NCBI GenBank assembly: GCA_030390025.1 | Contig: CM059431.1 | Span: 143,842,001 to 143,906,000, forward strand | Length of the DNA: 64,000 nucleotides | Direction: 5' to 3' | From: Squalus acanthias | Taxonomy: Eukaryota | Shown here: positions 1,361 through 53,889 of the stretch, one piece after another | How positions within the stretch are numbered: the stretch's first letter is position 1 | How the letters are laid out: each line of letters starts with the position of its first letter | Notes under the pieces: generated by a model | The model's database searches: none | Told to the model about the DNA's origin: nothing | What the model saw: only the letters and a program-made list of their open reading frames with translations | Program-made: the position numbers and the translations under genes

Positions 1361-1385
1361 GTAGAGGTTGCACTATGCTTCTGAG

Positions 1386-4300
1386 ATGAAGATAACCATA
1401 GCCAGCCTCAACATCAAGGGCAGCAGGGAGGCGCGCCGTAGAGTCAATAACTTCTCGGTCCTTCGGGACGGGAAATATGCGGTGTGCTTCCTGCAAGAAA
1501 CCCACACCATTCCGGGAGACGAGGCCATGTGGCTCCTGGAGTGGCAAGGAGGGGTCAGCATGAGTCACCTCTCTAACAATTCCTGCGGGGTGGCTGTCTT
1601 GCTGGCCCCGCATTTTCAGTCGGAGATCTTGAGGGTCAAGGAGCACGTGCCGGGCCGCTTGCTCCAGGTCACTGTTCGCCTGGGAGGCGTGCCGCTCCAT
1701 TTAGTGAACGTGTACGCCCCCCGGACCGGTGCGCAGCAAGTGCGCTTCTTCGGAGAAGTGTTCGCTCTTCTGGGCTCCATTGACGTGGGCGAGTGCGTCA
1801 TCCTCGGGGGGGATTTCAATTGTACCCTCGAGGCGCGGGACCGGTCGGGTCCCCCGCGAAGCCCGGAGGCGATGGAGAAGTTGCGGGACCTGGTCGGGTC
1901 CTTCGACTTGGTGGACGTCTGGCGAAATCTCCATCCCGACTCCAGCGCCTTCACGAGCGTGAGGTCTGGAGGAGGAAGGTCCAGAATTGACCGCCTTTAC
2001 ATTTCCCGGGCGTACGTCTCCTGCGTTCCGGCGGCTTCCATGCGGCCGGTGCCGTGCACGGACCACCACCTGGTGTGGGCGGAGCTCGCTCCGCTGCGCA
2101 CGCGGGGGGGGTCCGCGTACTGGCATTTTAACAACCTGCTGCTGGAGGACACGCGGTTCCGGGATTCGTTTCGCCGGTTCTGGGCCGACTGGAGAAGGAA
2201 TCTGGGAGGCTTCCCCTCCTTGAGGCTATGGTGGGACGTGGGCAAGGCTCACGTCCGCGTCTTCTGTCAGGAGTACGCGAAGGGGTCGACCAAGAGGCGG
2301 GAGGCCCGGGTCGGGCGATTGGAGAAAGAAGTGCTCGACCTGGAGTCCCGTCTCGGTCAAGTCGTCGAGGACCCGGCCCTGCGGAAGGTGTACGAAGAGA
2401 AGAAGGGCGCGCTGAAGGACCTGCAGCTGGTCGGGTCCCGAGGCGCGTACGTGAGGTCGCGGATCCAGTTCCTGCGGGACCTGGACCGCGGCTCCCCCTT
2501 CTTCTAGTCGCTGGAAAAAAGACGGGGGGTCCGTAAGCAGCTCTTGGGGCTGCTGGCCGATGACGGATCTCTGGTCTCGGATCCGGAGGGCATCAGCGCG
2601 GAGGCTCGGACCTATTACGGGGCTCTGTTCTGTTCGGATCCGTCCAGCGAGGATGCGCGCAGAGTTTTGTGGGAGGACCTGCCGAAGTTCGGCCCGGAGG
2701 GTGCCGAGAATTTAGAAGCTCCACTAAGCCTGGCGGAGCTGACCGGCGCCCTGCGCCAGCTCTCGAGGGGCAAGTCCCCGGGGCTGGACGGGCTGACCGT
2801 GGAGTTCCACAGGGCGTTCTGGGACGTCTTGGGGGACGACTACGCGCGGGTCCTGGGGGAAAGTCTGGCGACCGGGGAGATGCCCCTCTCTTGGCGCAGG
2901 GCGGTCATCGTCCTGCTGACCAGGAAGGGCGATCTCCGCCTACTTAAGAACTGTCGCCCGGTCTCCCTCCTCAGCACGGACTACAAAATTTTCGCCAGGG
3001 CTATGTCTGCTCGCCTTGGCACCGTGCTGGCCCGCATGATCCACCCCGACCAGTCCTACACGGTCCCGGGCCGGAGCATCCACGATAACATCCATCTGGT
3101 CCGGGACCTGGTCCACCATTCCCAGAGGGCTGGTCTGTCGGTTGCCAACCTTTCCCTGGATCAGGAGAAGGCGTTCGACAGGGTGGATCACGAGTATCTT
3201 TTCGGGACTCTGCGCGCATTCGGGTTCGGGACGCATTTCGTCGCCCGGATCCGACTTCTGTACGCCGCCGCGGAGTGTCTGATTAAAGTTAACGGGTCTT
3301 TGATGGCGCCCCTTCGCTTCGGGAGGGGGGTGCGTCAGGGATGCCCCATGTCCGGTCAGTTATACGCCGTTTGCGTGGAGCCTTTCCTGCGCCTCTTGCG
3401 GAAGAGGTTGACGGGACTGGCTCTGCAAGGGCCGGGCATGGAGGTGGTCCTCTCGGCTTACGCCGATGACGTGCTCCTCGCGGTCACGGATCCCGTCGAC
3501 TTGCGGAGGATGCGAGAATGCCAGCAGATTTACTCGGACGCATCCTCCGCCAAGATCAACTGGGAGAAATGTTCTGGACTCCTGGTGGGCCCATGGCGGG
3601 TGGACTCCCTGCCGGAGGAGTTCGGGACTTTCGCCTGGAGCACCACGCACCTCCTCTACCTGGGAGTCTACCTCAGCCCGGCCGAGGACGCCTTGCCGGC
3701 GAACTGGCAAGAGCTGGAGGCCAAAGTCACCGCTCGTCTAGGACGCTGGACAGGACTGCTCCGAGTGTTGTCATACAGGGGTCGAGCGCTGGTCATAAAC
3801 CAGCTGGTGGCCGCCATGTTGTGGTACCGGTTGATCACTTTGATCCCTCCCCCTGCGTTTGTCGCCAAGATGCAGAAGAAGCTCGTCGACTTCTTCTGGG
3901 ACAGAAGGAAGCACTGGGTCTCTGCCGCGGTTTTGAGTCTCCCGCTTAGGGAGGGCGGTCAGGCGCTGGTGTGCCTTCGCACCCAGGCGGCGACTTTCCA
4001 TCTTCAGACGCTGCAGAGATACCTGTACGTAGAGAATCCTCCTAGGTGGCGTGCGCTGGCGACGTATTTCTTCCGCCAGCTGCACAGCCTCAATTACGAC
4101 ACGCAGCTCCTGTTTGTGAGAGTGGGTGGCACGTGTGCCAGCCTGCGGGAGCTGCCTGTCTTCTACCAGGAACTGCTATGGGTTTGGAACAGCGTCGCCT
4201 CCGAGCGCAGTTCTCCCCCGTCAGGAGCGGCGGCCGTCCTTCGGGAGCCGCTGTTCAGGAATCCGCACCTCCACGACCGTGGGTTCGGCTGGCTGGCGGA

Positions 4301-5285
4301 GGGCAGGGCTGTGCCCGGTAAGGTGACCAGAGTCGGGGACCTGCTCGATGGCGGAGGAGCGGGCTGGATGGCGCCGGAGGAGTTGGCGAGGCGCATGTCC
4401 TGGGTCAACGTCCGGCTCGTGGTCAAAGCCATCGAGTCGCTAAAAGTGGCACTGGGCCCCGTCTCCACTAGGTGTGTCGAGGAGGCTCAAGCACGTGGGG
4501 CGATCCCGTCCGAACTGACCCCCGCTCGGACGGAATTACTTATCGGCGCCCGGCCCCAAATCCTCCCTCGGGAGCCGCCGCCTCAGCACTTGAGCCTTCT
4601 CGGAGAAATACCCTCCGTGCCCTTTCAATCCGCACGGAGGCGTTTCCTGTACGGGCTGGTCCTGCACACTCTCCACTTTGCCATCTTCGTCTGCCGTCCG
4701 GACACGCCTTGGCGTTCCATCCTGCCGTCCGGCGGAGGCGAAGGTCCCCATTGGAAGGCTCTCTACGCGGGAGTCTTCCCTTGTTCTATTGGGGACTTGG
4801 CCTGGACGTTGTTGCACGGAGCAGTCCCGTGCAATAGGGTTTTAAATAGGTTTATGGACTCCCAGGCTGCTTGCCATTTCTGCGGCCTGGAGGAGTCCGT
4901 CTATCACATTTATATTGAGTGTGAGAGGTTGCAGCCCCTCTTTCATTATTTGAAGGGGCTGCTCCTCAATTTCTGGTTGCACTTCAGCCCCACGCTCCTG
5001 ATCTACGGTCACCCGGTGCGGAGGGGAGCGGGTAGGTCAGAGGACCTCCTCGTAGGACTGCTCCTGGGCCTGGCCAAGAAAGCCATTAATTGGTCCAGGC
5101 AGCGGGCGGTCGAGGGGGTCGTTCGGCCCGATTGCCTGCCTCTCTTCCGCGGCCATGTTCGCGCCCGGGTGGCCCTGGAGATGGAGCACGCGGTGTCCGC
5201 CGGCACGCTTGAGTTTTTCCGCGACCGGTGGGCGCCGCGGGGGCTGGAGTGCATCGTCACCCCGGACTTCCAAATTTTGATTTGA
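1386..5285 (+). pseudogene. Tx1 ORF2 (AP endonuclease + reverse transcriptase + C-terminal CCHC), 1299 codons, one nonsense change TAC>TAG at 2505-2507
   Basis: ASLNI, LQETH, GGDFN, RIDR, TDHH (APE); KSPGLDG, LDQEKAFDRVDH, GVRQGCPMS, YADD (RT); CHFC…H…C; ORFs 1368..2507 and 2544..5285 share one frame. Confidence 0.93.
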
Positions 5286-5330
5286 TTTATTAAGTTTCAT
5301 TTAAAGTTTTAATTGATTTACAGTAAATTT

Positions 5331-5372
5331 TGATTTGTCCAACCTGATTTGTCCAACCTGATTTGTCCAACC
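5331..5372 (+). repeat. 3 x 14-bp TGATTTGTCCAACC at the 3' end of Tx1 copy 1
   Basis: Directly visible; absent from copies 3 and 4. Confidence 0.9.
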
Positions 5373-5381
5373 AAAAAGAGC

Positions 5382-8300
5382 AACACCAGGTTATAGTCCA
5401 ACAGCTTTATTTGAAATCACAAGCTTTCGGAGCTGCTGACGAAGCAGCAGCAGCAGCAGCAGAGTGGTGGTCTCTGTGACCAGGAAGAGGAGAAGGAGAA
5501 GGGGACCAGACAGCAGGCCACCACCAACAACCAACAACCACTACTGAGGTGCCTGGAGAGAGAGGACAGGAGAGGAGAAAGAGAAGAAGGGAAGGCCAAG
5601 GCCATCAAACATCAGAGGAGAGGCCTTTCCACACTGCCTCCTCAATTGGCCTCCATTTTAGGCGAGGGAGAGAGGGGAGAAAACATCACACCATCAACTG
5701 TTTGGAAGGAGGAAGGAAGGAAAGAACAACAGCTACAAGTGGGTGTGATTCTGGGGCACTCTCCCAGAGACTTTGTTTTGTAGGTCGGGGGAGGAAAGAA
5801 GAAAAGAAGAGGGCCGGAACATCCAAGGGGTGTGTGTGTGTGTGTGTGGCTTCTGTAAAAGCTAGGCCGCACACACCATATTAAACACCCCTTTCCCATT
5901 GCCTGACCTGGGACAGCTGGAGCTGCTTAGGTGAAATCCCCAATTAATTTAATCTTATTGGGCATCGTTAAGACCTGGTGCAGGACTGAGCCTGGGCATC
6001 TCCAGCTGTCCCAGGTGAAGACATCTTCTCCCCCCACCAGAAGACCACCACCAAAGACTTTTATTACATCGGAGAGTGCACCCCCCTGCCAACACCCACC
6101 CACCCACCATCCTGAGTGGCGACCCTGCCCTTGCGGCTTCCCTCCTTCCCACCCCCTCTCTCTCTCTCTCTCTTTGTCTCTTGTTTCTCTCTGCCTCTCT
6201 CTCGAAGAGGCACCTCAATTTGCTTATAATTAAGTACCCATTGAGCAGAGGGGAGAAGGCCCCTCTCCCAACTCAATCAACTAAAGGGAGAGGTGTGCCT
6301 TCAATTTAAGAGCTCCCTCTGCTCAGGGGAAAACAAAAACAAAAAAAACCGAGGCCATTAACACCTTCAGGCCTGTGACTTGGGGTGAGTGTAGCCCTTA
6401 AAGAACCCCCCATTATGGCGGGTACATCTTAGTCGGTGGCGGGGGCAGCGTGGACGTATGCGAGCGCGCCAGCCGCGGCCACGGCCGCAGCCACGAGTCC
6501 TCCTGTTACCCCGTCACCTTTTACCCTCCTTACGAGGAAGAATGGGGTCAAGAGCTACACTCACCCCAATATGACAATAGAGGCGTGCGTAAAAGCCATG
6601 GCTGGGGTTGTCGGCCCTTCAGCCATCGTCGCCGCCTCTAAAATGTACGGCAAGGCTGTGTTCTTCCTCGGGTCGGAGCGGGCGGTGTCCCTGGCCATCG
6701 AGAAGGGGCTCACCGTGGGCGGGACCTTCCTGCCGGTGGACGCCCTTGAGGCCACCGCGCAAAGGATTGTGGTTTCCAACGTCCCGCCCTTTGTTCCGGG
6801 TGAGCTCCTCCTCCCCCACCTACGTCAACTGGGGGAGGTGAGGTCGGGGATCACACCCATCCCGCTCGGCTTCCGGGAAGCCAGCCTTCGGCACGTCTTC
6901 TCCTTCCGGCGCCAGCTTTTCGTCCGGCTGGCGCGGGAGGAGGACGCGGATGGCGGGTTCACGGTGCTCCACGGGGGGACCGCCCACCGCGTCTTCTGGA
7001 CCTCGGACGGCGTGCGGTGCTACGCCTGTAAGGAGGTGGGGCACGTCCGCAAAAACTGCCCCGCCTCCAAGACCGCCACGACACCTGGCGCGGCCAGGGT
7101 TGGCGCCGCCGCCCCCCCTCCCCATGATACTGTCCGCGCGTCGACGGCGACGGATGCGTGGTCGAAATCGGAGGCCAACACCACCACGGCCTCCGGCGGG
7201 GGGGAGGGAGAGCGTCCGGGGGGAAGGAAGGCGCGTAGGAAAAATAAGCACCTAGGTGCGGATCCCCTCGTGGAGGAAACATCGGAGTTGACCGAACTCA
7301 CGCCCGAGTACATCGCGGAGTTGGTCGGGACGCATGAGACTGGGGGGGTCCTCGTGCCCGGGCCCGTGACCGTGACCGCAACTGCTGAGGCAGCTAAATC
7401 AATACCTGCAGCCGGGCTCGGGCCCGAGGGGCCCAAGAAACCCAGTCGTCGGAAGGGGGCAGAGAGGGAGGCCCCAGCAGACATGGAGGCCTCCCCCTCT
7501 CCGGGCCCCAACTTGTTAAAAGAAAGCTCCGCCCTCAGCAGGAGGACTGCGAGGAGGAAGGTCCCTCCGCAAAAGGGGGGCAGTCGCCCGCCACGGGTGC
7601 TGCGCCCCACCCCACCACCGTCATCGTCGCGCGCGATCGGCAGGGGTCGTCTGTCCCTCGGGAGGGTGAGACAGCCGAGTCTGTCCGACCTGTGCCTCCC
7701 GGGGATGGGGAAGAGACCCTGCCCATGGGGGGGGGCGCGGAACAACCCGCGGAGGGAAATGTAGTTCCGGAACCGTTGCTCCTCGCCGGGTCGGGCGTCC
7801 TGGGGACTGGGGCGGGCGAGGCCAAGAGGCTGAAGCCGAGCCCGCCTTTTTATAAACCAGACATCTCCCAGGGACTGCTCGACCTGGTGGAGGAGTGTAG
7901 CAATCCCCAGCCCGCTGGGTCGGAGGTTGGTGGCGGGGAGACGGAAAGCCCCCTGACTCCGTCTCTGTTGTTGGCGCCGGACGTGCTGGAGGAATTTGGG
8001 ATTATTTTCTCCCCGGTTTCTCCGGTCGCCCTGGCGCCTGAGGCGGGGGGGGCCCCCAAACCTCCGCCGCCGCCTCCCGGCCCGGCGCCCCTGAAGGAGC
8101 CCAGGGTGGACTCCTCTGCCACCGATCCTGGGGGTGGGATCGTGACGGAGGCGGGGCCGGCCGGTGCGGCCGAGCCGTTCGCTGCAACCCTGTGCGACGG
8201 ACGGGTCGGCCGCCGGGGTGACGACCTCCCGGAGGAGGGAGGGGACTCGGTGGTGGGCATCGAGGACGATTTGGAGTCCATCGGCAACGAGGTGATGGAC

Positions 8301-8569
8301 GCCCTCGTGCCCTTCACCGACCTCTCCCCTCATCCCCGTAGGGGAACTCCGGGATTTTATGGCCATGAGCCAGGGTCGTCACAAGAAGATCCGCTGGCCC
8401 CGACAAGTGGTCGGAGCTGGCGCTGCTCGTCGTGTCCCGTCCGCGCCGCCGGTTAAAATCATGGGTGCGGATCAAGACGTTGGCTGGCTCGAGCTGCGTC
8501 GGCTCAAGAGTTTCCACACTGGGCAAGCTGAGGGAGTGGCGGTCGTCAGTGACCGTGCTCCCTCCCCTC
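5382..8569 (+). mobile_element. Tx1-like copy 2: 5' UTR and disrupted ORF1, cut by assembly gap
   Basis: Starts AACACCAGG; ORF1 ATG at 6415 with TAG at 6430; zinc knuckle CYACKEVGHVRKNC; many indels towards the gap. Confidence 0.9.
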
Positions 8570-8769
8570 NNNNNNNNNNNNNNNNNNNNNNNNNNNNNNN
8601 NNNNNNNNNNNNNNNNNNNNNNNNNNNNNNNNNNNNNNNNNNNNNNNNNNNNNNNNNNNNNNNNNNNNNNNNNNNNNNNNNNNNNNNNNNNNNNNNNNNN
8701 NNNNNNNNNNNNNNNNNNNNNNNNNNNNNNNNNNNNNNNNNNNNNNNNNNNNNNNNNNNNNNNNNNNNN
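8570..8769. other. Assembly gap (200 N)
   Basis: Run of N. Confidence 1.
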
Positions 8770-9825
8770 TGAGAAGTCGCACAACACCAGGTTATAGTCC
8801 AACAGCTTTATTTGAAATCACAAGCTTTCGGAGCTGCTGATGAAGGAGCAGCAGCAGCAGCAGCAGCAGCAGAGTGGTGGTCTCTGTGACCAGGAAGAGG
8901 AGAAGGAGAAGGAGACCAGACAGCAGACCACCACCAACACAACCACAACCACTACTGAGGTGCCTGGAGGGAGAGGACAGGAGAGGAGAGGGAAAAGAAG
9001 GAAAAGAAGGCCAAGGCCGTCAAACACCAGAGGAGAGGCCTTTCCACACTGCCTCCTCAATTGGCCTCCATTTTAGGAGAGGGAGAGAGGGGGAGAAAAC
9101 AACACAACATCCATCATCTGTTTGGAAGGAGGAAGGAAGGAAAGAACATCAGCTACAGGTGGGTGTGATTCTGGGGCACTCTCCCAGAGACTTTGTTTTG
9201 TAGGTGGGGGGAGGAAAGAAGAAAAAGAAGAAGGCCAAGGGGTGTGTGTGTGTGTGTGTGGCTTGTGTAAAAGCTAGGCCGCACACACCATATTAAACAC
9301 CCCTTTCCCATTGCCTGACCTGGGACAGCTGGAGCTGCCTAGGTGAAGTCCCCAATTAATTTAATCTTATTGGGCATCGTTAAGACCTGGTGCAGGACTG
9401 AGCCTGGGCCTCTCCAGCTATCCCAGGTGAAGACATCTTCTCCCCCCACCAGAAGACCACCACCAAAGACTTTTATTACATCGGAGAGTGCACCCCCCTG
9501 CCAACACCCACCCACCCACCATCCTGAGTGGCGACCCTGCCCTTGCGGCTTCCCTCCTTCCCACCCCGCCCTCTCTCTCTCTCTTTGTCTCTTGTCTCTC
9601 TCTGCCTCTCTCTCTAAGAGGCACCTCAATCTATTTTTAATTAAGTACCCATTGAGCAGAGGGGAGAAGGCCCCTCTCCCAATTAAATTCATATAAAGGG
9701 AGAGGTGTGCCTTCAATTTAAGAGTTCCCTCTGCTCAGGGGAAAACAAAAACAAAAAAACCGAGGCCATTAACACCTTCAGGCCTGTGACTTGGGGTGAG
9801 TGTAGCCCTTAAAGACCAACCCATC

Positions 9826-11987
9826 ATGGCGACCACATCTTCGCCGGTGGCGGGGGCAGCGAGGACATACGCGAGCGTGGCAGCCGCGGCCACGGCCGCA
9901 GCCACGAGTCCTCCTGTTACCCCGTCACCTTTTACCCTCCTTACGAGGAAGAATGGGGTCAAGAGCTACACTCACCCCAACATGACTACAGAGGCGTGCG
10001 TTAAAGCCATGGCTGGGGTTGTCGGCCCTTCAGCCATCGTCGCCGCCTCTAAAATGTACGGCAAGGCTGTGTTCTTCCTGGGGTCGGAGCGGGCGGTGTC
10101 CCTGGCCATCGAGAAGGGGCTCACCGTGGGCGGGACCTTCCTGCCGGTGGACCCCCTTGAGGCCACCGCGCAAAGGATTGTGGTTTCCAACGTCCCGCAC
10201 TTTGTTCCGGGTGTGCTCCTCCTCCCCCACCTACGTCAACTGGGGGAGGTGAGGTCGGGGATCACACCCATCCCGCTCGGCTTCCGGGAAGCCAGCCTTC
10301 GGCACGTCTTCTCCTTCCGGCGCCAGCTTTTCGTCCGGCTGGTGCGGGAGGAGGACGCGGATGGCGCGTTCACGGTGCTCCACGGGGGGACCGCCCACCG
10401 CGTCTTCTGGACCTCGGACGGCGTGCGGTGCTACGCCTGTAAGGAGGTGGGGCACGTCCGCAAATACTGCCCCGCCTCCAAGGCCGCCACGACACCTGGC
10501 GCGGCCAGGGTTGGCGCCGCCGCCCCCCCTCCCCCTGATACTGTCCGCGCGTCGATGGCGACGGATGCGCGGTCGAAATCGGAGGCCAACACCACCACGG
10601 CCTCCGGCGGGGGGGAGGGAGAGCGTCCGGGGGGAAGGAAGGCGCGTAGGAAAAATAAACACCTAGGGGCGGATCCCCTCGTGGAGGAAACATCGGAGTT
10701 GACCGAACTCACGCCCGAGTACATCGCGGAGTTGGTCGGGACGCATGAGACTGGGGGGGTCCTCGTGCCCGGGCCCGTGACCGTGACCGCAACTGCTGAG
10801 GCAGCTAAATCAAGACCTGCGGCCGGGCTCGGGCCCGAGGGGCCCAAGAAACCCAGTCGTCGGAAGGGGGCAGAGAGGGAGGCCCCAGCAGACATGGAGG
10901 CCTCCCCCTCTCCGGGCCCCAACTTGTTAAAAAGAAAGCTCCGCCCCCAGCAGGAGGACTGCGAGGAGGAAGGTCCCTCCGCAAAAGGGGGGCAGTCGCC
11001 CGCCGCGGGTGCTGTGCCCCACCCCACCACCTTCATCGTCGCGCGCGATCAGCAGGGGTCGTCTGTCCCTCGGGAGGGTGAGACAGCCGAGTCTGTCCGA
11101 CCTGTGCCTCCCGGGGATGGGGAAGAGATCCTGCCCGTGGGGGGGGGGGGGCGCGGAACAACCCGCGGAGGGAAATGTAGTTCCGGAACCGTTGCTCCTC
11201 GCCGGGTCGGGCGTCCTGGGGACTGGGGCGGGCGAGGCCAAAGAGGCTGAAGCTGAGCCCGCCTTTTATAACCCAGACATCTCCCAGGGACTGCTCGACC
11301 TGGTGGAGGAGTGTAGCAATCCCCAGCCCGCTGGGTCGGAGGTTGGTGGCGGGGAGACGGAAAGCCCCCTGACTCCGTCTCTGTTGTTGGCGCCGGACGT
11401 GCATGGAGGAATTTGGGATTATTTTCTCCCCGGTTTCTCCGGTCGCCCCAGCGCCTGAGGCGGGGGGTGGCCCCGAACCGCCGCCGCCGCCTCCCGGCCC
11501 GGCGCCCCTGAAGGAGCCCAGGGTGGACTCCTCTGCCACCGATCCTGGGGGTGGGATCGTGACGGAGGCGGGGCCGGCCGGTGCGGCCGAGCCGTTCGCT
11601 GCACCCTGTGCGACGGACGGGTCGGCAGCCGGTGACGACCTCCCAGAGGAGGACGGGGACTCGGTGGTGGGCATCGAGGACGATTTGGAGTCCATCGGCA
11701 ACGAGGTGATGGACGCCCTCGTGCCCTTCAGCGACTCTCCCCCCATCCCCGTAGGGGAACTCCGGGATTTTATGGCCATGAGCCAGGGTCGTCACAAGAA
11801 GATCCGGCTGGCCCTCGACAAGTGGTCGGAGCTGGCGCTGCTCGTCGTGTCCGTCCGCGCCGCCGTTAAAATCATGGGCGCGGACAAGGACGTTGGCCGG
11901 CTCGAGCTGCGTCGGCTCAAGAGTTTCCACACTGGGCTGCTGAGGGAGTGGCGGTCGTCAGTGACCGCGCTCCCTCCCCTCCGTTAG
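9826..11987 (+). pseudogene. Tx1 ORF1, copy 3 (~720 aa nucleic-acid-binding protein with CCHC knuckle), frameshifts near 11145 (G-run) and 11403
   Basis: MATTSSPVAG… ASKMYGKAVFFL, IVVSNVP, FSFRRQLF, CYACKEVGHVRKYC; continued by ORFs 11009..11458 and 11403..11987. Confidence 0.85.
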
Positions 11988-12012
11988 GTAGAGGTTGCAC
12001 TATGCTTCTGAG

Positions 12013-15000
12013 ATGAAGATAACCATAGCCAGCCTCAACATCAACGGCAGCAGGGAGGCGCGCCGTAGATTCAATAAATTCTCGGTCCTTCGGGACGGGA
12101 AATATGCGGTGTGCTTCCTGCAAGAAACCCACACCGTTCCGGGAGACGAGGCCACGTGGCTCCTGGAGTGGCAAGGAGGGGTCAGCATGAGTCACCTCTC
12201 CAACAATTCCTGCGGGGTGGCTGTCTTGCTGGCCCCGCATTTTCAGCCGGAGATCTTGAGGGTCAAGGAGCACGTGCCGGGCCGCTTGCTCCAGGTCACT
12301 GTTCGCCTGGGAGGCGTGCCGCTCCATTTAGTGAACGTGTACGCCCCCCGGACCGGTGCGCAGCAAGTGCGCTTCTTCGGAGAAGTGTCCGCTCTTCTGG
12401 GCTCCATCGACGTGGGCGAGTGCGTCATCCTCGGGGGGGATTTCAATTGTACCCTCGAGGCGCGGGACCGGTCGGGTCCCCCGCGAAGCCCGGCGGCGAT
12501 GGAGAAGTTGCGGGACCTGGTCGGGTCCTTCGACTTGGTGGACGTCTGGTGAAATCTCCATCCCGACTCCAGCGCCTTCACGAGTGTGAGGTCTGGAGGA
12601 GGAAGGTCCAGAATCGACCGCCTTTACATTTCCCGGGCGTACGTCTCTTGCGTTCCGGCGGCTTCCATGCGGCCGGTGCCGTGCACGGACCACCACCTGG
12701 TGTGGGCGGAGCTCGCTCCGCTGCGCGCGCGGGGGGGGTCCGCGTACTGGCATTTTAACAACCTGCTGCTGGAGGACGCGCGGTTCCGGGATTCGTTTCG
12801 CTGGTTCTGTGCCGACTGGAGAAGGAAGCGGGGAGGCTTCCCCTCCTTGAGGCTATGGTGGGACGTGGGCAAGGCTCACGTCCGCGTCTTCTGTCAGGAG
12901 TATGCGAAGGGGTCGACCAAGAGGCGGGAGGCCCGGGTCGGGCGATTGGAGAAAGAAGTGCTCGACCTGGAGTCCCGTCTCGGTCAAGTCGTCGAGGACC
13001 CGGCCCTGCGGAAGGTGTACGAAGAGAAGAAGGGCGCGCTGAAGGACCTGCAGCTGGTCGGGTCCCGAGGCGCGTACGTGAGGTCGCGGATCCTGTTCCT
13101 GCGGGACCTGGACCGCGGCTCCCCCTTCTTCTACTCGCTGGAAAAAAGACGGGGGGTCCGTAAGCAGCTCTTGGGGCTGCTGGCCGACGACGGATCTCTG
13201 GTCTCGGATCCGGAGGGCATCAGCGCGGAGGCCCGGGCCTATTACGGGGCTCTGTTCTCTTCGGATCCGTCCAGCGAGGATGCGCGCAGAGTTTTGTGGG
13301 AGGACCTGCCGAAGGTCGGCCCGGAGGGCGCCGAGAATTTAGAAGCTCCGCTAAGCCTGGCGGAGCTGACCGGTGCCCTGCGCCAGCTCTCGAGGGGCAA
13401 GTCCCCGGGGCTGGACGGGCTGACCGTGGAGTTCCACAGGGTGTTCTGGGACGTCTTGGGGGACGACTACGCGCGGGTCCTGGGGGAAAGTCTGGCGACC
13501 GGGGAGATGCCCCTCTCTTGGCACAGGGCGGTCATCGTCCTGCTGCCCAAGAAGGGCGATCTCCGCCTACTTAAGAACTGGCGCCCGGTCTCCCTCCTCA
13601 GCACGGACTACAAAATTTTCGCCAGGGCTATGTCTGCTCGCCTTGGCACTGTGCTGGCCCGCATGATCCACCCCGACCAGTCCTACACGGTCCCGGGCCG
13701 GAGTATCCACGATAACATCCATCTGGTCCGGGACCTGGTCCACCATTCCCAGAGGGCTGGTCTGTCGGTCGCCTTCCTTTCCCTGGATCAGGAGAAGGCG
13801 TTCGACAGGGTGGATCACGAGTATCTTTTCGGGACTCTGCGCGCATTCGGGTTCGGGACGCATTTCGTCGCCCGGATCCGAATTCTGTACGCCGCCGCGG
13901 AGTGTCTCATTAAAGTTAACGGGTCTTTGACGGCGCCCCTTCGCTTCGGGAGGGGGGTGCGTCAGGGATGCCCCATGTCCGGTCAGTTATACGCCGTTTG
14001 CGTGGAGCCTTTCCTGCGCCTCTTGCGGAAGAGGTTGACGGGACTGGCTCTGCAAGGGCCGGGCGTGGAGGTGGTCCTCTCGGCTTACGCCGATGACGTG
14101 CTCCTCGCGGTCACGGATCCCGTCGACTTGCGGAGGATGCGAGAATGCCAGCAGATTTACTCGGACGCATCCTCCGCCAAGATCAACTGGGAAAAATGTT
14201 CTGGACTCCTGGTGGCCCCATGGCAGGTGGACTCCCTGCCGGAGGAGTTCGGGCCTTTCGCCTGGAGCACCACGCACCTCCTCTACCTGGGAGTCTACCT
14301 CAGCCCGGCCGAGGACGCCTGGCCGGCGAACTGGCAAGAGCTGGAGGCCAAAGTCAGCGCTCGCCTAGGGCACTGGACAGGATTGCTCCGAGTGTTGTCC
14401 TACAGGGGTCGAGTGCTGGTCATAAACCAGCTGGTGGCCGCCATGTTGTGGTACCGGTTGGTCACTTTGATCCCTCCCCCTGCGTTTGTCGCCAAGATGC
14501 AGAAAAAGCTCGTCGACTTCTTCTGGGACAAAAGGAAGCACTGGGTCTCTGCCGCGGTTTTGAGTCTCCCGCTTAGGGAGGGCGGTCAGGCGCTGGTGTG
14601 CCTTCGCACCCAGGTGGCGACTTTCCGTCTTCAGACGCTGCAGAGATACCTGTACGTGGAGAATCCTCCTAGGTGGCGTGCGCTGGTGACGTATTTCTTC
14701 CGCCAGCTGCACGGCCTCAATTACGACACGCAGCTCCTGTTTGTGAGAGTGGGTGGCATGCGTGCCAGCCTGCGGGAGCTGCCTGTCTTCTACCAGGAAC
14801 TGCTATGGGTTTGGAACAGCGTCGCCTCCGAGCGCAGTTCTCCCCCGTCAGGAGCGGCGGCCGTACTTCGGGAGCCGCTGTTCAGGAATCCGCACCTCCA
14901 CAACCGCGGGTTCGGCTGGCTGGCGGAGGGCAGGGCTGTGCCCGGTAAGGTGACCAGAGTCGGGGACCTGCTCGATGGCGGAGGAGCGGGCTGGATGGCG

Positions 15001-15912
15001 CCGGAGGAGTTGGCGAGGCGCATGTCCTGGGTCAACGTCCGGCTCGCGGTCAAAGCCATCGAGTCGCTAAAAGTGGCACTGGGCCCCGTCTCCACTAGGT
15101 GTGTCGAGGATTCTCAAGCACGTGGGGCGATCCCGTCCGAACTGACCCCCATTCGGACGGAATTCCTTATCGGCGCCCGGCCCCGAATCCTCCCTCGGGA
15201 GCCGCCGCCCCACCACTTGAGCCTTCTCGGAGAAATGCCCTCCGTGCCCTTTCAATCCGCACGGAGGCGTTTCCTGTACGGGCTGCTCCTGCACACTCTC
15301 CACTTTGCCATCTTCGTCTGCCGTCCGGACACGCCTTGGCGTACCATCCTGCCGTCCGGCGGAGGCGAAGGTCCCCATTGGAAGGCTCTCTACGTGGGAG
15401 TCTTCCCTTGTTCTATTGGGGACTTGGCCTGGAGGGTGTTGCACGGAGCAGTCCCGTGCAATAGGATTTTAAGTAGGTTTACGGACTCCCAGGCTGCTTG
15501 CCATTTTTGCGGCCTGGAGGAGTCCGTTTATCACATTTATGTTGAATGTGAGAGGTTGCAGCCCCTCTTTCATTATTTGAAGGGGCTGCTCCTCAATTTC
15601 TGGTTGCACTTCAGCCCCACGCTCCTGATCTACGGTCACCCGGTGCGGAGGGGAGCGGGTAGGTCGGAGGACCTCCTCGTAGGACTGCTCCTGGGCCTGG
15701 CTAAGAAAGCCATTAATTGATCCAGGCAGCGGGCGGTCGAGGGGGTCGTTCGGCCCGATTGCCTGCCTCTCTTACGCGGCCATGTTCGCGCCTGGGTGGC
15801 CCTGGAGATGGAGCACGCGGTGTCCGCCGGCACGCTTGAGTTTTTCCGCGACCGGTGGGCGCCGCGGGGACTGGAGTGCATCGTCACCCCAGACTTCCAA
15901 ATTTTAATTTGA
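12013..15912 (+). pseudogene. Tx1 ORF2, copy 3 (APE-RT-CCHC), nonsense codons at 12550 and 15718
   Basis: Same 3900-nt frame as copy 1; CGA>TGA and TGG>TGA stops. Confidence 0.92.
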
Positions 15913-17015
15913 TTTATTAAGTTTCATTTCAAGTTTTAATTGATTTACAGTAAATTTGGGTTCAACCAAAAAGATGAACACCAGGTTATAGTCCAACAGC
16001 TTTATTTGAAATCACAAGCTTTCGGAGCTGCTGACGAAGGAGCAGCAGCAGCAGCAGGAGCAGCAGAGTGGTGGTCTCTGTGACCAGGAAGAGGAGAAGG
16101 AGAAGGAGACCAGACAGCAGGCCACCACCAACAACCAACAACCACTACTGAGGTGCCTGGAGAGAGAGGACAGGAGAGGAGAAAGAGAAGAAGGGAAGGC
16201 CAAGGCCATCAAACATCAGAGGAGAGGCCTTTGCACACTGCCTCCTCAATTGGCCTCCATTTTAGGCGAGGGAGAGAGGGGAGAAAACATCACACCATCA
16301 ACTGTTTGGAAGGAGGAAGGAAGGAAAGAACAACAGCTACAGGTGGGTGTGATTCTGGGGCACTCTCCCAGAGACTTTGTTTTGTAGGTGGGGGGAGGAA
16401 AGAAGAAAAGAAGAGGGCCGGAACATCCAAGGGGTGTGTGTGTGTTTGTGTGGCTTCTGTAAAAGCTAGGCCGCACACACCATATTAAACACCCCTTTCC
16501 CATTGCCTGACCTGGGACAGCTGGAGCTGCTTAGGTGAAGTCCCCATTTAATTTAATCTTATTGGGCATCGTTAAGACCTGGTGCAGGACTGAGCCTGGG
16601 CATCTCCAGCTATCCCAGGTGAAGACATCTTCTCCCCCCACCAGAAGACCACCACCAAAGACTTTTATTACATCGGAGAGTGCACCCCCCCTGCCAACAC
16701 CCACCCACCCACCATCCTGAGTGGCGACCCTGCCCTTGCGGCTTCCCTCCTTCCCACCCCGCCCTCTCTCTCTCTCTTTGTCTCTTGTCTCTCTCTGCCT
16801 CTCTCTCTAAGAGGCACCTCAATCTATTTTAATTAAGTACCCATTGAGCAGAGGGCAGAAGGCCCCTCTCCTAATTAATTCATAAAAAGGGAGAGGTGTG
16901 CCTTCAATTTAAGAGCTCCCTCTGCTCAGGGGAAAACAAAAACAAAAAACCGAGGCCATTAACACCTTCAGGCCTGTGACTTGGTGTGAGTGTAGCCCTT
17001 AAAGACCAACCCATC

Positions 17016-19173
17016 ATGGCGACCACATCTTCGCCGGTGGCGGGGGCAGCGAGGACATACGCAAGCGTGGCAGCCGCGGCCACGGCCGCAGCCACGAGTC
17101 CTCCTGTTACTCCGTCACCTTTTACCCTCCTTACGAGGTAGAATGGGGTCAAGAGCTACACTCACCCCAACATGACAATAGAGGCGTGCGTAAAAGCCAT
17201 GGCTGGGGTTGTCGGCCCTTCAGCCATCGTCGCCACCTCTAAAATGTATGGCAAGGCTGTGTTCTTCCTGGGGTCGGAGCGGGCGGTGTCCCTGGCCATC
17301 GAGAAAGGGCTCACCGTGGGCGGGACCTTCCTGCCGGTGGACCCCATTGAGGCCACCACGCAAAGGATTGTGGTTTCCAACGTCCCGCCCTTTGTTCCGG
17401 GTGAGCTCCTCCTCCCCCACCTACGTCAACTGGGGGAGGTGAGGTCGGGGATCACACCCATCCCGCTCGGCTTCCGGGAAGCCAGCCTTCGGCACGTCTT
17501 CTCCTTCCGGCGCCAGCTTTTCGTCCGGCTGGCGCGGGAGGAGGACGCGGATGGCGCGTTCACGGTGCTCCACGGGGGGACCGCCCACCGCGTCTTCTGG
17601 ACCTCGGACGGCGTGCGGTGCTACGCCTGTAAGGAGGTGGGGCACGTCCGCAAAAACTGCCCCGCCTCCAGGGCCGCCACGACAGCTGGCGCGGCCAGGG
17701 TTGGCGCCGCCGCCCCCCCTCCCCCTGATACTGTCCGCGCGTCGATGGCGACGGATCCGCGGTCGAAATCGGAGGCCAACGCCACCACGGCCTCCGGCGG
17801 GGGGGAGGGAGAGCGTCCGGGGGGAAGGAAGGCGCGTAGGAAAAATAAACAGCTAAGTGCGGATCCCCTCATGGAGGAAACATCTGAGTTGACCGAACTC
17901 ACGCCCGAGTACATCGCGGAGTTGATCGGGACGCATGAGACTGGGGGGGTCCTCGTGCCCGGGCCCGTGACCGTGACCGCAACTGCTGAGGCAGCTAAAT
18001 CAAGACCTGAGGCCGGGCTCGGGCCCGAGGGGCCCAAGAAACCCAGTCGTCGGAAGGGGGCAGAGAGGGAGGCCCCAGCAGACATGGAGGCCTCCCCCTC
18101 TCCGGGCCCCAATATGTTAAAAAGAAAGCTAGACCCCCAGGAGGAGGACTGCGAGGAGGAAGGTCCCTCCGCAGAGGGGGAGTCGTCGCCCGCCGCGGGT
18201 GCTGCGCCCCACCCCACCACCGTCATCGTCGCGCGCGATCGGGGGGGGTCGTCTGTCCCTCGGGAGGGTGAGACAGCCGAGTCTGTCCGACCTGTGCCTC
18301 CCGGGGATGGGGAAGAGACCCTGCCCGTGGGGGGGGGGCGCGGAACAACCCGCGGAGGGAAATGTAGTTCCGGAACCGTTGCTCCTCGCCGGGTCGGGCG
18401 TCCTGGGGACTGGGGCGGGCGAGGCCAAAGAGGCTGAAGCCGAGCCCGCCTTTTATATCCCAGATATCTCCCAGGGACTGCTCGACCTGGTGGAGGACTT
18501 TAATAATCCCCAGCCCGCTGGGTCGGAGGTTGGTGGCGGGGAGACGGAAAGCCCCCTGACTCCGTCTCTGATGTTGGCGCCGGACGTACTGGAGGAATTT
18601 GAGATTATTTTCTCCCCGGTTTCTCCGGTCGCTCCGGCGCCTCAGGCGGGGGGGTGCCCCGAACCGCCGCCGCCGCCTCCCGGCCCGGCGCCCCTGAAGG
18701 AGCCCAGGGTGGACTCCTCTGCCACCGATCCTGGGAGTGGGATCGTGACGGAGGCGGGGCCAGCCGGTGCGGCCGAGCCGTTCGCTGCACCCCGTGCGAC
18801 GGACGGGTCGGCCGCCGGTGACGACCTCCCGGAGGAGGACGGTGACTCGGTGGTGGGCATCGAGGACGATTTGGAGTCCATCGGCAGCGAGGTGATGGAC
18901 GCCCTCGTGCCCTTCACCGACCCTCCCCTCATCCCCGTAGGGGAACTCCGGGATTATATGGCCATGAGCCAGGGTCGTCACAAGAAGATCCGGCTGGCCC
19001 TCGACAAGTGGTCGGAGCTGGCGCTGCTCGTCGAGTCCATCCGCGCCGCCGTTAAAATCATGGGCGCGGGCAAGGACGTTGGCCGGCTCGAGCTGCATCG
19101 GCTCAAGAGATTCCACACTGGGCTGCTGAGGGAGTGGCGGTCGTCAGTGACCGCGCTCCCTCCCCTCCGTTAG
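17016..19173 (+). pseudogene. Tx1 ORF1, copy 4 (early TAG near 17139, G-run frameshift near 18335)
   Basis: ORFs 17172..18437 and 18199..19173. Confidence 0.85.
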
Positions 19174-19198
19174 GTAGAGGTTGCACTATGCTTCTGAG

Positions 19199-22100
19199 AT
19201 GAAGATAACCATAGCCAGCCTCAACATCAACGGCAGCAGGGAGGCGCGCCGTAGATTCAATAACTTCTCGGTCCTTCGGGACGGGAAATATGCGGTGTGC
19301 TTCCTGCAAGAAACCCACACCGTTCCGGGAGACGAGGCCACGTGGCTCCTGGAGTGGCAAGGAGGGGTCAGCATGAGTCACCTCTCTAACAATTCCTGCG
19401 GGGTGGCTGTCTTGCTGGCCCCGCATTTTCAGCCGGAGATATTGAGGGTCAAGGAGCACGTGCCAGGCCGCTTGCTCCAGGTCACTGTTCGCCTGGGAGG
19501 CGTGCCGCTCCATTTAGTGAACGTGTACGCCCCCCGGACCGGTGCGCAGCAAGTGCGCTTCTTCGGAGAAGTGTCCGCTCTTCTGGGCTCCATCGACGTG
19601 GGCGAGTGCGTCATCCTCGGGGGGGATTTTAATTGTACCCTCGAGGCGCGGGACCGGTCGGGTCCCCCGCAAAGCCCGGCGGCGATGGAGAAGTTGCGGG
19701 ACCTGGTCGGGTCCTTCGACTTGGTGGACGTCTGGCGAAATCTCCATCCCGACTCCAGCGCCTTCACGAGCGTGAGGTCTGGAGGAGGAAGGTCCAGAAT
19801 CGACCGCCTTTACATTTCCCTGGCGTACGTCTCCTGCGTTCCGGCGGATTCCATGCGGCCGGTGTCGTGCACGGACCACCACCTGGTGTGGGCGGAGCTG
19901 GCTCCGCTGCGCGCGCGGGGGGGGGTCCGCGTACTGGCATTTTAACAACCTGCTGCTGGAGGACGCGCGGTTCCTGGATTCGTTTCGCCGGTTCTGGGCC
20001 GACTGGAGAAGGAAGCGGGGATGCTTCCCCTTCCTGAGGCTATGGTGGGACGTGGGCAAGGCTCACGTCCGCGTCTTCTGTCAGGAGTACGCGAAGGGGT
20101 CGACCAAGAGGCGGGAGGCCCGGGTCGGGCGATTGGAGAAAGAAGTGCTCGACCTGGAGTCCCGTCTCGGTCAAGTCGTCGAGGACCCGGCCCTGCGGAA
20201 GGTGTACGAAGAGAAGAAGGGCGCGCTGAAGGACCTGCAGCTGGTCGGGTCCCGAGGCGCGTACGTGAGGTCGTCGATCCAGTTCCTGCGGGACCTGGAC
20301 CGCGGCTCCCCCTTCTTCTACTCGCTGGAAAAAAAGACGGGGGGTCCGTAAGCAGCTCTTGGGGCTGCTGGCCGACGACGGATCTCTGGTCTCGGATCCG
20401 GAGGGCATCAGCGCGGAGGCCCGGGCCTGTTACGGGGCTCTGTTCTCTTCGGATCCGTCCAGCGAGGATGCGCGCAGAGTTTTGTGGGAGGACCTGCCGA
20501 AGGTCGGCCCGGAGGGCGCCGAGAATTTAGAAGCTCCGCTACGCCTGGCGGAGCTGACCGGCGCCCTGCGCCAGCTCTCGAGGGGCAAGTCCCCGGGGCT
20601 GGACGGGCTGACCATGAAGTTCCACAGGGCGTTCTGGGACGTCTTGGGGGACGACTACGAGCGGGTCCTGGGGGAAAGTCTGGCGACCGGGGAGATGCCC
20701 CTCTCTTGGTGCAGGGCGGTCAACGTCCTGCTGCTCAAGAAGGGCGATCTCCGCCTACTTAAGAACTGGCGCCCGGTCTCCCTCCTCAGCACGGACTACA
20801 AAATGTTCGCCAGGGCTATGTCTGCTCGCCTTGGCACCGTGCTGGCCCGCATGATCCACCCCGACCAGTCCTACATGGTCCCGGGCCAGAGTTTCCACGA
20901 TGACATCCATCTGGTCCGGGACCTGGTCCACCATTCCCAGAGGGCTGGTCTGTCGGTCGCCTTCCTTTCCCTGGATCAGGAGAAGGCGTTCGACAGGGTG
21001 GATCACGAGTATCTTTTCGGGACTCTGCACGCATTCGGGTTCGGGACGCATTTCGTCGCCCGGATCCGACTTCTGTACGCCGCCGCGGAGTGTCTCATTA
21101 AAGTTAACGGGTCTTTGACGACGCCCCTTTGCTTCGGGAGGGGGGTGCGTCAGGGATGCCCCATGTCCGGTCAGTTATACGCCGTTTGCGTGGAGCCTTT
21201 CCTGCGCCTCCTGCGGAAGAGGTTGACGGGACTGGCTCTGCAAGGGCCGGGCGTGGAGGTGGAGATGCCCCTCTCTTGGCGCAGGGCGGTCATCGTCCTG
21301 CTGCCCAAGAAGGGCGATCTCCGCCTACTTAAGAACTGGCGCCCGGTCTCCCTCCTCAGCACGGACTACAAAATTTTCGCCAGGGCTATGTCTGCTCGCC
21401 TTGGCACCGTGCTGGCCCGCATGATCCACCCCGACCAGTCCTACACGGTCCCCGGCCGGACAATCCACGACAACATCCATCTGGTCCGGGACCTGGTCCA
21501 CCATTCCCAGAGGGCTGGTCTGTCGGTCGCCTTCCTTTCCCTAGATCAGGAGAAGGCGTTCGACAGGGTGGATCACGAGTATCTTTTCGGGTCTCTGCGC
21601 GCATTCGGGTTCGGGACGCATTTCGTCGCCCGGATTCGACTTCTGTAAGCCGCCGCTGAGTGTCTGATTAAAGTTAACGGGTCTTTGACAGTGCCCCTTC
21701 GCTTCGGGAGGGGGGTGCGTCAGGGATGCCCCATGTCCGGTCAGTTATACGCCGTTTGCGTGGAGTCTTTCCTGCACCTCTTGCGGAAGAGGTTGACGGG
21801 ACTGGCTCAGCAAGGGCCGGGCGTGAAGGTGGTCCTCTCGGCTTACGCCGATGACGTGCTCCTCGCGGTCACAGATCCCGTCGACTTGCGGAGGATGCGA
21901 GAATGCCAGCAGATTTACTCGGACGCATCCTCCGCCAAGATCAACTGGGAGAAATGTTCTGGACTCCTGGTGGGCCCATGGCAGGTGGACTCCCTGCCGG
22001 AGGAGTTTGGGCCTTTTGCCTGGAGCACCACGCACCTCCTCTACCTGGGAGTCTACCTCAGCCCGGCCGAGGACGCCTGGCCGGCGAACTGGCAAGAGCT

Positions 22101-23670
22101 GGAGGCCAAAGTCACCGCTCGCCTAGGGCGCTGGACAGGACTGCTCCGAGTGTTGTCCTACAGGGGTCGAGCGCTGGTCATAAACCAGCTGGTGGCCGCC
22201 ATGTTGTGGTACCGGTTGGTCACTTTGATCCCTCCCCCTGCGTTTGTCGCCAAGATGCAGAAGAAGCTCGTCGACTTCTTCTGGGACAAAAGGAAGCACT
22301 GGGTCTCTGCCGCGGTTTTGAGTCTCCCGCTTAGGGAGGGCGGTCAGGCGCTGGTGTGCCTTTGCACCCAGGCGGCGACTTTCCGTCTTCAGACGCTGCA
22401 GTGATACCTGTACGTGGAGAATCCTCCTAGGTGGCGTGCGCTGGCGACGTATTTCTTCCGCCAGCTGCACGGCCTCAATTACGACACGCAGCTCCTGTTT
22501 GTGAGAGTGGGTGGCACGCGTGCCAGCCTGCGGGAGCTGCCTGTCTTCTACCAGGAACTGCTATGGGTTTGGAACAGCGTCGCCTCCGAGCGCAGTTCTC
22601 CCCCGTCAGGAGCGGCGGCCGTCCTTCGGGAGCCGCTGTTCAGGAATCCGCACCTCCACGACCGCGGGTTCGGCTGGCTGGCGGAGGGCAGGGCTGTGCC
22701 CGGTAAGGTGACCAGAGTCGGGGACCTGCTCGATGGCGGAGGAGCGGGCTGGATGGCGCCGGAGGAGTTGGCGAGGCGCATGTCCTGGGTCAACGTCCGG
22801 CTCGCGGTCAAAGCCATCGAGTCGCTAAAAGTGGCACTGGGCCCCATCTCCACTAGGTGTGTCACGGAGGCTCAAGCACGTGGGGCGATCCCGTCCGAAC
22901 TGACCCCCGTTCGGACGGAATTCCTTATCGGCGCCCGGCCCCGAATCCTCCCTCGGGAGCCGCCGCCTCACCACTTGAGCCTTCTCGGAGAAATGCCCTC
23001 CGTGCCCTTTCAATCCGCACGGAGGCGTTTCCTGTACGGGCTGCTCCTGCACACTCTCCACTTTGCCATCTTCGTCTGCCATCCGGACACGCCTTGGCGT
23101 ACCATCCTGCCGTCCGGCGGAGACGAAGGTCCCCATTGGAAGGCTCTCTACGTGGGAGTCTTCCCTTGTTCTATTGGGGACTTGGCCTGGACGTTGTTGC
23201 ACGGAGCAGTCCCGTGCAATAGGGTTTTAAATAGGTTTACGGACTCCCAGGCTGCTTGCCATTTCTGCGGCCTGGAGGAGTCCGTCTATCACATTTATAT
23301 TGAATGTGAGAGGTTGCAGCCCCTCTTTCATTATTTGAAGGGGCTGCTCCTCAATTTCTGGTTGCACTTCAGCCCCACGCTCCTGATCTACGGTCACCCG
23401 GTGCGGAGGGGAGCGGGTAGGTCGGAGGACCTCCTCGTAGGACTGCTCCTGGGCCTGGCCAAGAAAGCCATTAATTGGTCCAGGCAGCGGGCGGTCGAGG
23501 GGGTCGTTCGGCCCGATTGCCTGCCTCTCTTCCGCGGCCATGTTTGCGCCCGGGTGGCCCTGGAGATGGAGCACGCGGTGTCCGCCGGCATGCTTGATTT
23601 TTCCCGCGACCGGTGGGCGCCGCGGGGACTGGAGTGCATAGTCACCCCGGACTTCCAAATTTTAATTTGA
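19199..23670 (+). pseudogene. Tx1 ORF2, copy 4 (frameshifts near 19920 and 20335, stops at 21646 and 22402, duplicated RT segment)
   Basis: Fragment ORFs 19181..19945, 20052..20351, 20359..21648, 21685..22404, 22414..23670. Confidence 0.9.
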
Positions 23671-23739
23671 TTTATTAAGTTTCATTTAAAGTTTTAATTG
23701 ATTTACAGTAAATTTGGGTTCTGTCCAACCAAAAAGAGG

Positions 23740-23829
23740 AACACCAGGTTATAGTCCAACAGTTTTGTTTGAAATCACAAGCGATTTCAAATAAAACTGT
23801 TGGACTATAACCTGGTGTTGTGCGATTTG
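23740..23829. repeat. 37-bp inverted repeat with 6-nt loop; resembles collapsed Penelope-like element termini; Tx1 target
   Basis: AACACCAGGTTATAGTCCAACAGTTTTGTTTGAAATC-acaagc-GATTTCAAATAAAACTGTTGGACTATAACCTGGTGTT, one mismatch; Penelope attribution is from recall. Confidence 0.8.
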
Positions 23830-27600: not shown

Positions 27601-27863
27601 TTCAGTCTGAGAGTGTGGGCAGTTCAGCCTGAGAGAGGGGGCGGTTCAGTCTGAGAGAGGGGCGGTTCAGTCTGAGAGAGGGGGCTGTTCAGTCTGAGAG
27701 AGGGGGCTGTTCAGTCTGAGAGAGGGGCGGTTCAGTCTGAGAGAGGGGGCGGTTCAGTCTGAGAGAGGGGGCGGTTCAGTCTGAGAGAGGGGGCGGTTCA
27801 GTCTGAGAGAGGGGGCGGTTCAGTCTGACAGAGGGGGGGTTCAGTCTGAGAGAGGGGGCGGTT
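24661..27863 (+). repeat. G-rich minisatellite, 21-22 bp unit GGTTCAGTCTGAGAGAGGGG(AC/GC), roughly 145-150 copies
   Basis: Directly visible tandem array. Confidence 0.97.
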
Positions 27864-27867
27864 AAGA

Positions 27868-28115
27868 CTGACAGAGTGAGGGATTCACCAGTGCTGTGTG
27901 ATAATTCTCACTGTTAATTATGTAAATGTGGTTCCAGTACCAGCACTGACAGAGTGAGGGATTCACCAGTGCTGTGAGATAAGGCTCACTGTTAATACTG
28001 CAGGAGTTGGACCAGTACCAGCTCTGACAGAGTGAGGGATTCACCAGTGCTGTGAGATAAGGCTCACTGTTAATACTGCAGGAGTGGTACCAGTACCAGC
28101 ACTGACAGAGTGAGG
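27868..28115 (+). repeat. 78-bp tandem repeat, ~3.2 copies
   Basis: CTGACAGAGTGAGG recurs at 27868, 27946, 28024 and 28102. Confidence 0.92.
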
Positions 28116-53815: not shown

Positions 53816-53818
53816 TAA

Positions 53819-53836
53819 TGGCGACCGCGGCAGGAC
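53819..53836 (+). promoter_or_regulatory. Primer binding site, tRNA-Arg(TCG)
   Basis: TGGCGACCGCGGCAGGAC is complementary to the recalled vertebrate tRNA-Arg(TCG) 3' end …GTCCTGCCGCGGTCG-CCA; 3 nt after the LTR. Confidence 0.85.
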
Positions 53837-53889
53837 TTTGGCGAAAGGGTTGTGAAGCAGTAAATGCTGGTTTTGAGGAGAGAACAAAA

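Follow-up and report, generated by a model that had tools for sequence, protein, structure and literature searches.

Arrays of a Tx1-like LINE in Squalus acanthias appear to combine the front ends of resident copies with the back ends of other lineages

How does a retrotransposon with a fixed insertion site come to lie in head-to-tail arrays? The question is raised by a stretch of 64,000 nucleotides (nt) of Squalus acanthias DNA (NCBI GenBank assembly GCA_030390025.1, contig CM059431.1, positions 143,842,001 to 143,906,000 of the forward strand; hereafter the window), in which bases 1-23739 hold four copies of a 7.2-kb long interspersed element (LINE) with two open reading frames (ORFs), every copy with broken ORFs. 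A reading made from the sequence alone had proposed a sequence-specific Tx1 retrotransposon that carries its own target as a head and builds arrays by repeated insertion. Following the element through the genome (3.7 Gb), we find chimeric units in its arrays, with front ends shared between neighbours and back ends of different lineages. Units U1-U9 are those of the array in and around the window, L-numbers denote genomic loci or stretches and A-numbers other arrays.

Neighbouring units share front ends and differ at their back ends

The intact target site occurs in 90,712 exact 30-nt copies genome-wide. Nevertheless, 16 of the 63 loci covered by the first 97 family tails in genome order (25%) hold 2-7 units, where about 1,100 insertions over at least 90,712 sites would be expected to re-hit a locus in 1.2-2.4% of cases; a regenerated target is therefore insufficient to account for the arrays. 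The sequence-only reading had each insertion regenerate a site at which the array can grow. The 14-nt target-site duplication does regenerate the site, but simple re-insertion as a sufficient cause predicts about 1-2% multi-unit loci and independent truncations, and neither the observed frequency nor the truncations, which are shared between neighbours, agree with it. Its view that arrays are built from different source copies was borne out, since all 16 multi-unit loci, including all eight dimers, contain at least two tail types; the differing tails speak against segmental or unequal-crossover duplication of one insertion, which it had named as the competing possibility. For the window array as a whole, duplication of a single insertion was ruled out as well, U1 and U2 being closest to units on another contig (0.05% difference over the 3' 3.9 kb).

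The junctions between units were collected with a pattern of tail plus 14-nt duplication, followed by any base but G, which yielded 31 junctions genome-wide. Ten were uninformative (eight lead into flank or scrap, two were left out), and the remaining 21 lie in 14 loci. In 12 of these 14 sequence-selected loci, neighbouring units have the same 5' break point to within 1 nt; at L197 it is common to two of three units and at L206 it is not shared, and a much longer unit stands beside its neighbour in just one of the 14. Seven further truncated arrays were found otherwise, five with and two without a shared break point. Within each of these truncated arrays (14 + 7), tails or lineage-marking changes differ. 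The units are separated by the duplication, as in R1-type arrays, whereas the own 5' end for each unit that marks independent R1-type re-insertion is lacking in the 12 loci.

Sharing extends beyond the break point. Eight arrays were judged against 83 background copies. Neighbours in L152 have eight rare-allele sites in common in their 5' part and switch lineage further 3'. L158 shows the same with three shared rare alleles and a switch between +262 and +509, L054 with one and a switch between +237 and +244, and, outside this comparison, L196 with two. Where the units of an array are full length, unusual heads recur along it while the tails change. Outside the window, six of seven neighbour pairs differ at 0-1 sites in nt 15-400, so few differences being found in 0.1% or fewer of 1,910 background pairs, and the window pairs U2/U3, U4/U5 and U5/U6 are likewise closer than background in this region. 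Longer units at L099/L111, L196 and L205 have stacked beside them very short insertions of tail alone (about 20-40 nt), each with a duplication of its own.

The element, its target site and its head

Judging from its ORF2, the window element is a young Tx1L-like LINE of the Tx1 group. Intact ORF2 (1,299 amino acids) and ORF1 (about 718 amino acids) were found in other genomic copies; ORF2 is 50% identical to YTX2_XENLA (P0022, Xenopus laevis Tx1L) over 1,299 amino acids and 55% over residues 1-800. It has an N-terminal APE endonuclease, a reverse transcriptase (RT) and a C-terminal zinc motif in this order, with PF03372 and PF00078 above the Pfam cut-off and PF13966 slightly below, and catalytic motifs are present in the ORF2 of an intact natural copy. 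The CCHC knuckle of ORF1 (PF00098, cut-off 20.8 bits) scored 22.2 bits in U7 and 16.9 in U8. In three of 30 stretches examined (L165, L186, L188), the GT repeat of the 5' untranslated region (UTR), at element nt ~460-467, holds a related Tx1-like element (70-75% alike) that points the opposite way.

Genome-wide, 979 of 1,103 pattern-defined 3' ends are followed by AACACCAGG (reversed-pattern controls, 4 and 0; three of the first 100 rows of the 3'-end listing were not family members and were left out of later counts), and 934 exact tail-plus-15-nt junctions stand against none with the reversed pattern, so that the junction is not due to chance. Together with the similarity and domains of ORF2, these flanks bear out the proposal of a sequence-specific Tx1 element, and dispersed copies do not have the random flanks that would have spoken against it. 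Among 30 copies chosen by their 3' end alone, 25 are in the target site, two at a similar sequence on the opposite strand of the repeat that holds the target, and three off target, with AACA starting the flank in all 30; the flanks thus exceed, at a fixed base, the 20% in one repeat by which sequence-specific LINEs have been recognized (PMC4494074). Among the sequencing runs listed, none was of RNA; contigs from four runs cover both element and target, and none among the listed pieces spans the tail-target junction.

The target, which the sequence-only reading had located correctly and could not name, is most plausibly the terminal repeat at the 3' end of a Penelope-like element, entered on its antisense side. 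This reading follows from the ORFs in the flanks and from a predicted minimal hammerhead motif. Where they continue, the flanks lead in antisense direction into ORFs that contain a YIDD motif and whose end resembles GIY-YIG; in L033-L036, ORFs of 273-389 amino acids run towards the site, with YIDD in L035 and L036. The Pfam GIY-YIG profile matched one of three target-ORF proteins scanned (E=4e-4, 20.9 bits, under the cut-off of 22.6), and the RT profile did not match the partial target ORFs scanned. The putative hammerhead lies 39 nt before the insertion point on the strand of the target ORFs and has the form CUGANGA-stem II-GAAA; 25 of 28 variants retain a stem of at least 5 bp with differing loop lengths, and the fold z-score of the stretch is just -1.25. 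An Rfam scan of the window gave no match, to a hammerhead or otherwise, and seven flanks gave sub-threshold hairpin matches only. Such minimal hammerheads have been described in the terminal repeats of Penelope-like elements (PMC4209133). Inverted, truncated terminal copies make the target end palindromic in the flank of the window array, as they do in many sampled flanks. The site and the stagger can be read directly from the junctions, and we infer that the LINE endonuclease would cut the antisense 3' end of this very abundant element with a 14-nt stagger.

Some loci show unusual use of the target. At L125 (C2:164562432-164566606), and likewise at C2:164776946 and C4:152277725, a palindromic Penelope remnant has received an insertion in each of its two arms, so that two LINEs face each other tail to tail about 90-130 nt apart. 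The opposite strand of the Penelope repeat has another AACACC motif at its far end. This motif forms the 3' flank in L046, L155 and L194, where a deletion between both motifs apparently occurred, and in L054, where the insertion is genuine.

The duplication is 14 nt long in the truncated and off-target copies of L037, L038, L045, L053, L099 and L152, and 67 nt at the palindromic site of L044. Full-length copies start with target sequence, the head, of 15 nt (in many copies), 45-49 nt or about 52 nt, the last accompanied by an inverted scrap of the hammerhead; the underlying census of 115 entries, with imperfect removal of duplicates and a biased sample, serves only to show that several head types exist. 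By length, 18 of the 30 copies are full, two more reach nt ~460 and ten are truncated, in a sample leaning to one tail type. This is a high full-length share for a LINE.

The sequence-only reading regarded the head as element-borne, identical among copies 2-4 and distinct from the final flank. The three window heads indeed have C at position 24 where the final flank has T, and they match one another up to about position 59 and differ just beyond it. At this polymorphic position, the head and the flank of the 3'-most unit match in 17 and differ in eight of 25 loci, and at the eight loci the head is therefore element-borne. In array A3, by contrast, a private variant is common to all four heads and the flank, so here the head is a copy of the local target. 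Pairing of the cDNA end with the target over varying lengths would account for both origins. Even the 15-nt head may be carried by the RNA: L180 and L191, on different contigs, have the same non-target base at its position 11, where the L180 flank has the usual base. The supposition that the head is what makes the element target itself is not supported. The four truncated units of the off-target array L152 have neither a head nor Penelope sequence and are joined by the 14-nt duplication alone; a head is thus not required for arrays.

How the arrays might grow

We propose that the endonuclease nicks the Penelope-like site and that reverse transcription begins at the cut on a fresh RNA, which would give each unit its own 3' end, as seen in the differing tail lineages. 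Joining of the front end might then be the limiting step, for which homology would offer two solutions. Where the site is virgin, the full-length cDNA would end in 15-52 nt of captured target and pair with the 14-nt overhang or further downstream, which would explain the many full-length copies. An occupied site, still cuttable because of the 14-nt duplication, would offer the resident copy just downstream, on which the cDNA would pair and be finished; the new unit would then have the front end of the resident, including its break point, duplication or head variant and private mutations, and the back end of the RNA. We consider it probable that homology lets new cDNA be finished on the resident copy in this manner: a new RNA would undergo target-primed reverse transcription at the regenerated site, and the cDNA would then pair with the resident, by strand invasion or annealing, to yield the chimera. 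A wider view, which we regard as possible without favouring it, is that most attempts at empty sites fail at front-end joining and that homology rescues them, with the captured head at virgin sites and the resident at occupied ones, so that any insertion would be a trap that is re-hit at least ten times as often as an empty site and stamps its own front end on what follows. If so, even a dead 200-base fragment or an off-target copy would become a trap for newcomers, and arrays would be recombination products which reshuffle the 5' and 3' lineages of the family.

Growth would take place chiefly at the 5' side, with internal junctions also hit and some units being plain duplicates. In the window array, private changes climb from U1 to U6 (0-0.03% in U1-U4, 0.44 in U5, 1.05 in U6) and from U8 to U9 (0.81 and 1.09). 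An older tail type, with 0.33% against 0.06% private changes (13 against 46 copies, in a grouping partly confounded with sampling), belongs to the 3'-most unit in seven truncated arrays where it was read by eye. The order long-short-full-short at L160/L161 indicates that an internal junction was also hit.

Several observations weigh against completion on the resident copy. The excess of multi-unit loci, 10-21-fold, presumes equal availability of all 90,712 sites. Four of the eight arrays examined have no shared rare allele, and in L152 the shared alleles are patchy. Break points differ in L206, L157, L160/L161 and one L197 unit, and the window pairs U1/U2, U3/U4, U6/U7 and U8/U9 are no closer in their 5' sequence than background. 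Growth towards the 5' side is not significant across 17 arrays (19 against 11 neighbour pairs, p=0.20; 11 against five arrays, p=0.21), and the association of head and flank at position 24 is a trend (p=0.08). Finally, the near-identical neighbours at L021/L022 (0 differences in 1.5 kb), in A11 (0.08%), in L195 (units 1-2) and in L152 (units 1-3) fit plain duplication, and some plain duplication does occur as well.

These near-identical neighbours, the patchy sharing in L152 and the weak polarity would also be accounted for if duplication and tail change were separate events, in which nicks at a junction lead to tandem duplication between sister chromatids or to unequal exchange and the 3' ends are converted later from cDNA or dispersed copies; unequal exchange is the accepted route for the large R1 arrays (10.1101/158386). 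The first duplication would, however, depend on a mere 14 nt of homology, and since every multi-unit locus, dimers included, holds at least two tail types, conversion would be needed after nearly every duplication. We therefore regard this course of events as unlikely. Still less can be said for independent re-insertion of units complete in themselves, with open chromatin at occupied loci as the cause of the enrichment. It is known for R1 (PMC2718515) and SINEU-3 (PMC4494074), and here it accounts for L206, L157 and L160/L161, for the head changes along the window array and for a 38-nt insertion behind a full unit in L099. As it predicts independent break points and mostly full-length newcomers, it is contradicted as the main route by the 12 loci sharing a neighbour's break point and leaves the shared private alleles unexplained; it holds for a minority of junctions and is improbable beyond them.

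Homology might already act at target choice in addition to 5' joining, if the RNA guided the complex to resident copies by pairing with DNA. Such guidance would yield the 10-21-fold excess and the chimeras together, and promoterless truncated and off-target arrays (L152, L153) also grow; as there is no direct sign of it, as homology at the joining step suffices and as we know of no target choice of this kind in LINEs, we consider it quite improbable. That the arrays are assembly artefacts from false haplotype duplication seems hardly credible. Gaps do lie inside the window array and inside A4, and U8-U9 could belong to a second haplotype, but the tail-duplication junctions are exact, tails and ages differ, and many arrays are shorter than 3 kb. 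Two further routes were ruled out by reasoning: integration of a circle would give the second unit the break point of the donor, and template jumping cannot copy a locus-specific duplication between units.

Completion on the resident copy has partial precedents. Melanogaster-type R1 RNA has target sequence at its 5' end that anneals (PMC2718515), R2 forms 'anneal' junctions, in which homology close to the cut lets the cDNA 3' end pair there to finish insertion (PMC11331408), and L1 templated insertions involve a step resembling synthesis-dependent strand annealing, a rare outcome with 22 cases (10.1101/2024.08.27.596794). Annealing of cDNA at 5' junctions in R2 (PMC11331408) and in R1/R2 (PMC2718515) offers a precedent for the proposed joining in the shark element. 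In contrast to the short homology or rare outcome in R2 and L1, hundreds of bases from the resident are apparently the usual route at its occupied sites. R1 carries upstream 28S sequence, whose annealing gives a deletion (PMC2718515), whereas the shark head lies downstream of the cut and matches the duplication overhang. Drosophila R1 likewise has a 14-bp duplication, and its arrays arise as new copies enter the duplication that borders a resident on its 5' side (PMC2718515; 10.1101/158386), so that the array model of the sequence-only reading is not new (PMC2718515); Drosophila non-LTR dimers, however, are reported with distinct truncations (PMC2718515; 10.1101/158386), unlike the shark neighbours.

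That Tx1 elements are aimed at other transposons and may form tandem copies around a duplication was also known (PMC4494074). X. laevis Tx1L, with the same two-ORF APE-type design, inserts into Tx1D, a piggyBac-type DNA transposon, whereas the shark target is the end of a Penelope-like retroelement. The crocodilian Tx1-Mar/SINEU-3 is similarly aimed at another transposon, and tandem SINEU-3 copies enclose a 16-nt duplication interpreted as sequential insertion; the main text of PMC4494074 lists Mariner, Harbinger, LTR elements and microsatellites as crocodilian Tx1 targets and does not name Penelope, and inherited break points, as in the shark arrays, do not appear in the portions of that text covered. 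More broadly, the literature covered, which did not extend to Repbase, Dfam or most subscription papers, held no Tx1 element aimed at Penelope and no arrays with inherited truncation points. Our analysis suggests in addition that arrays grow by homology with resident copies, whose break points are inherited. One LINE insertion could in this way turn into a tandem array in a single step, and the family adds a retroelement terminus to the Tx1 targets. The joining of LINE front ends to the chromosome (second-strand priming) is an unsettled step that constrains R2-type tools for gene insertion; the family offers hundreds of natural junctions at which the source of each part is readable, and these junctions suggest that a homologous resident beside the cut greatly raises completed insertion.

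Layout of the window

The array consists of at least seven units (U1-U7), an assembly gap and two more units (U8-U9). Five units lie upstream of the window, U1 starting behind upstream target sequence at window position about -37,668, which makes copy 1 the sixth unit of an array that begins 37.7 kb upstream. The sequence-only reading had tails followed by AACACCAGG at 5382, 15977 and 23740, which we could confirm at all three positions, as we could the insertion point between GCAC and AACACCAGG, with the target starting at 8783, and the inverted target copy placed at 23811-23829, which ends at 23819 on the minus strand. Its contiguous array of four copies does not hold, since the gap cuts copy 2 and copy 3 is preceded by upstream target sequence and not by a tail; the site at 8771, taken to be uninterrupted, is not empty, since copy 3 has its 5' junction there. 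U8-U9 could come from a second haplotype of the U1-U7 locus or mark a second nearby target. U7 as an allele of U9 was ruled out by 4.2% divergence over nt 1000-2600.

Features of the window (positions in window coordinates)
Feature	Position	Strand	Remarks
U6 (copy 1), 3' part	1..5381	+	starts 1,819 nt upstream of the window; broken ORF1; one stop in ORF2 (1386-5282)
Junction U6/U7	5382..5433	+	14-nt duplication and Penelope-derived head (52 nt)
U7 (copy 2)	5382..8569	+	head, 5' UTR, broken ORF1; ended by contig end
Assembly gap, 200 N	8570..8769	.	interrupts U7 and the array
Upstream target sequence (Penelope-like end, antisense)	8770..8782	+	in front of U8
U8 (copy 3), full length	8783..15976	+	head; ORF1 from 9826 (zinc knuckle, frameshifted); tail short, without poly(A)
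ORF2 of U8	12013-15909	+	APE endonuclease, RT, zf-RVT; two stops
U9 (copy 4), full length	15977..23739	+	internal 572-nt duplication (20691-21832), frameshifts, older tail type
14-nt target-site duplication, array 3' end	23740..23753	+	length taken from truncated and off-target copies
Target, palindromic remnant of Penelope-like element end	23740..23829	.	second arm (minus strand; target ends at 23819) unoccupied
Minisatellite, 22-nt units	24663-27876
Minisatellite, 80-nt units	28722-29025
Minisatellite, 40-nt units	29391-30605
Intronless ORF, 1,357 amino acids	35591-40608	+	URGCP/very-large-GTPase domains (Pfam PF25683, PF25496)
Direct repeats, 860 nt	41685-42543 and 44785-45648		89% alike, about 3.1 kb apart
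Long terminal repeat (LTR) retroelement	52558-63967		1.25-kb direct repeats (90% alike); fragmented RT, two RNase H-like domains, integrase

Of the remaining features, the intronless ORF is followed by an ORF of 325 amino acids and the LTR retroelement has a downstream ORF of 341 amino acids, both without a Pfam match. The retroelement is possibly an endogenous retrovirus, and the pair of 860-nt repeats is perhaps a small LTR element.

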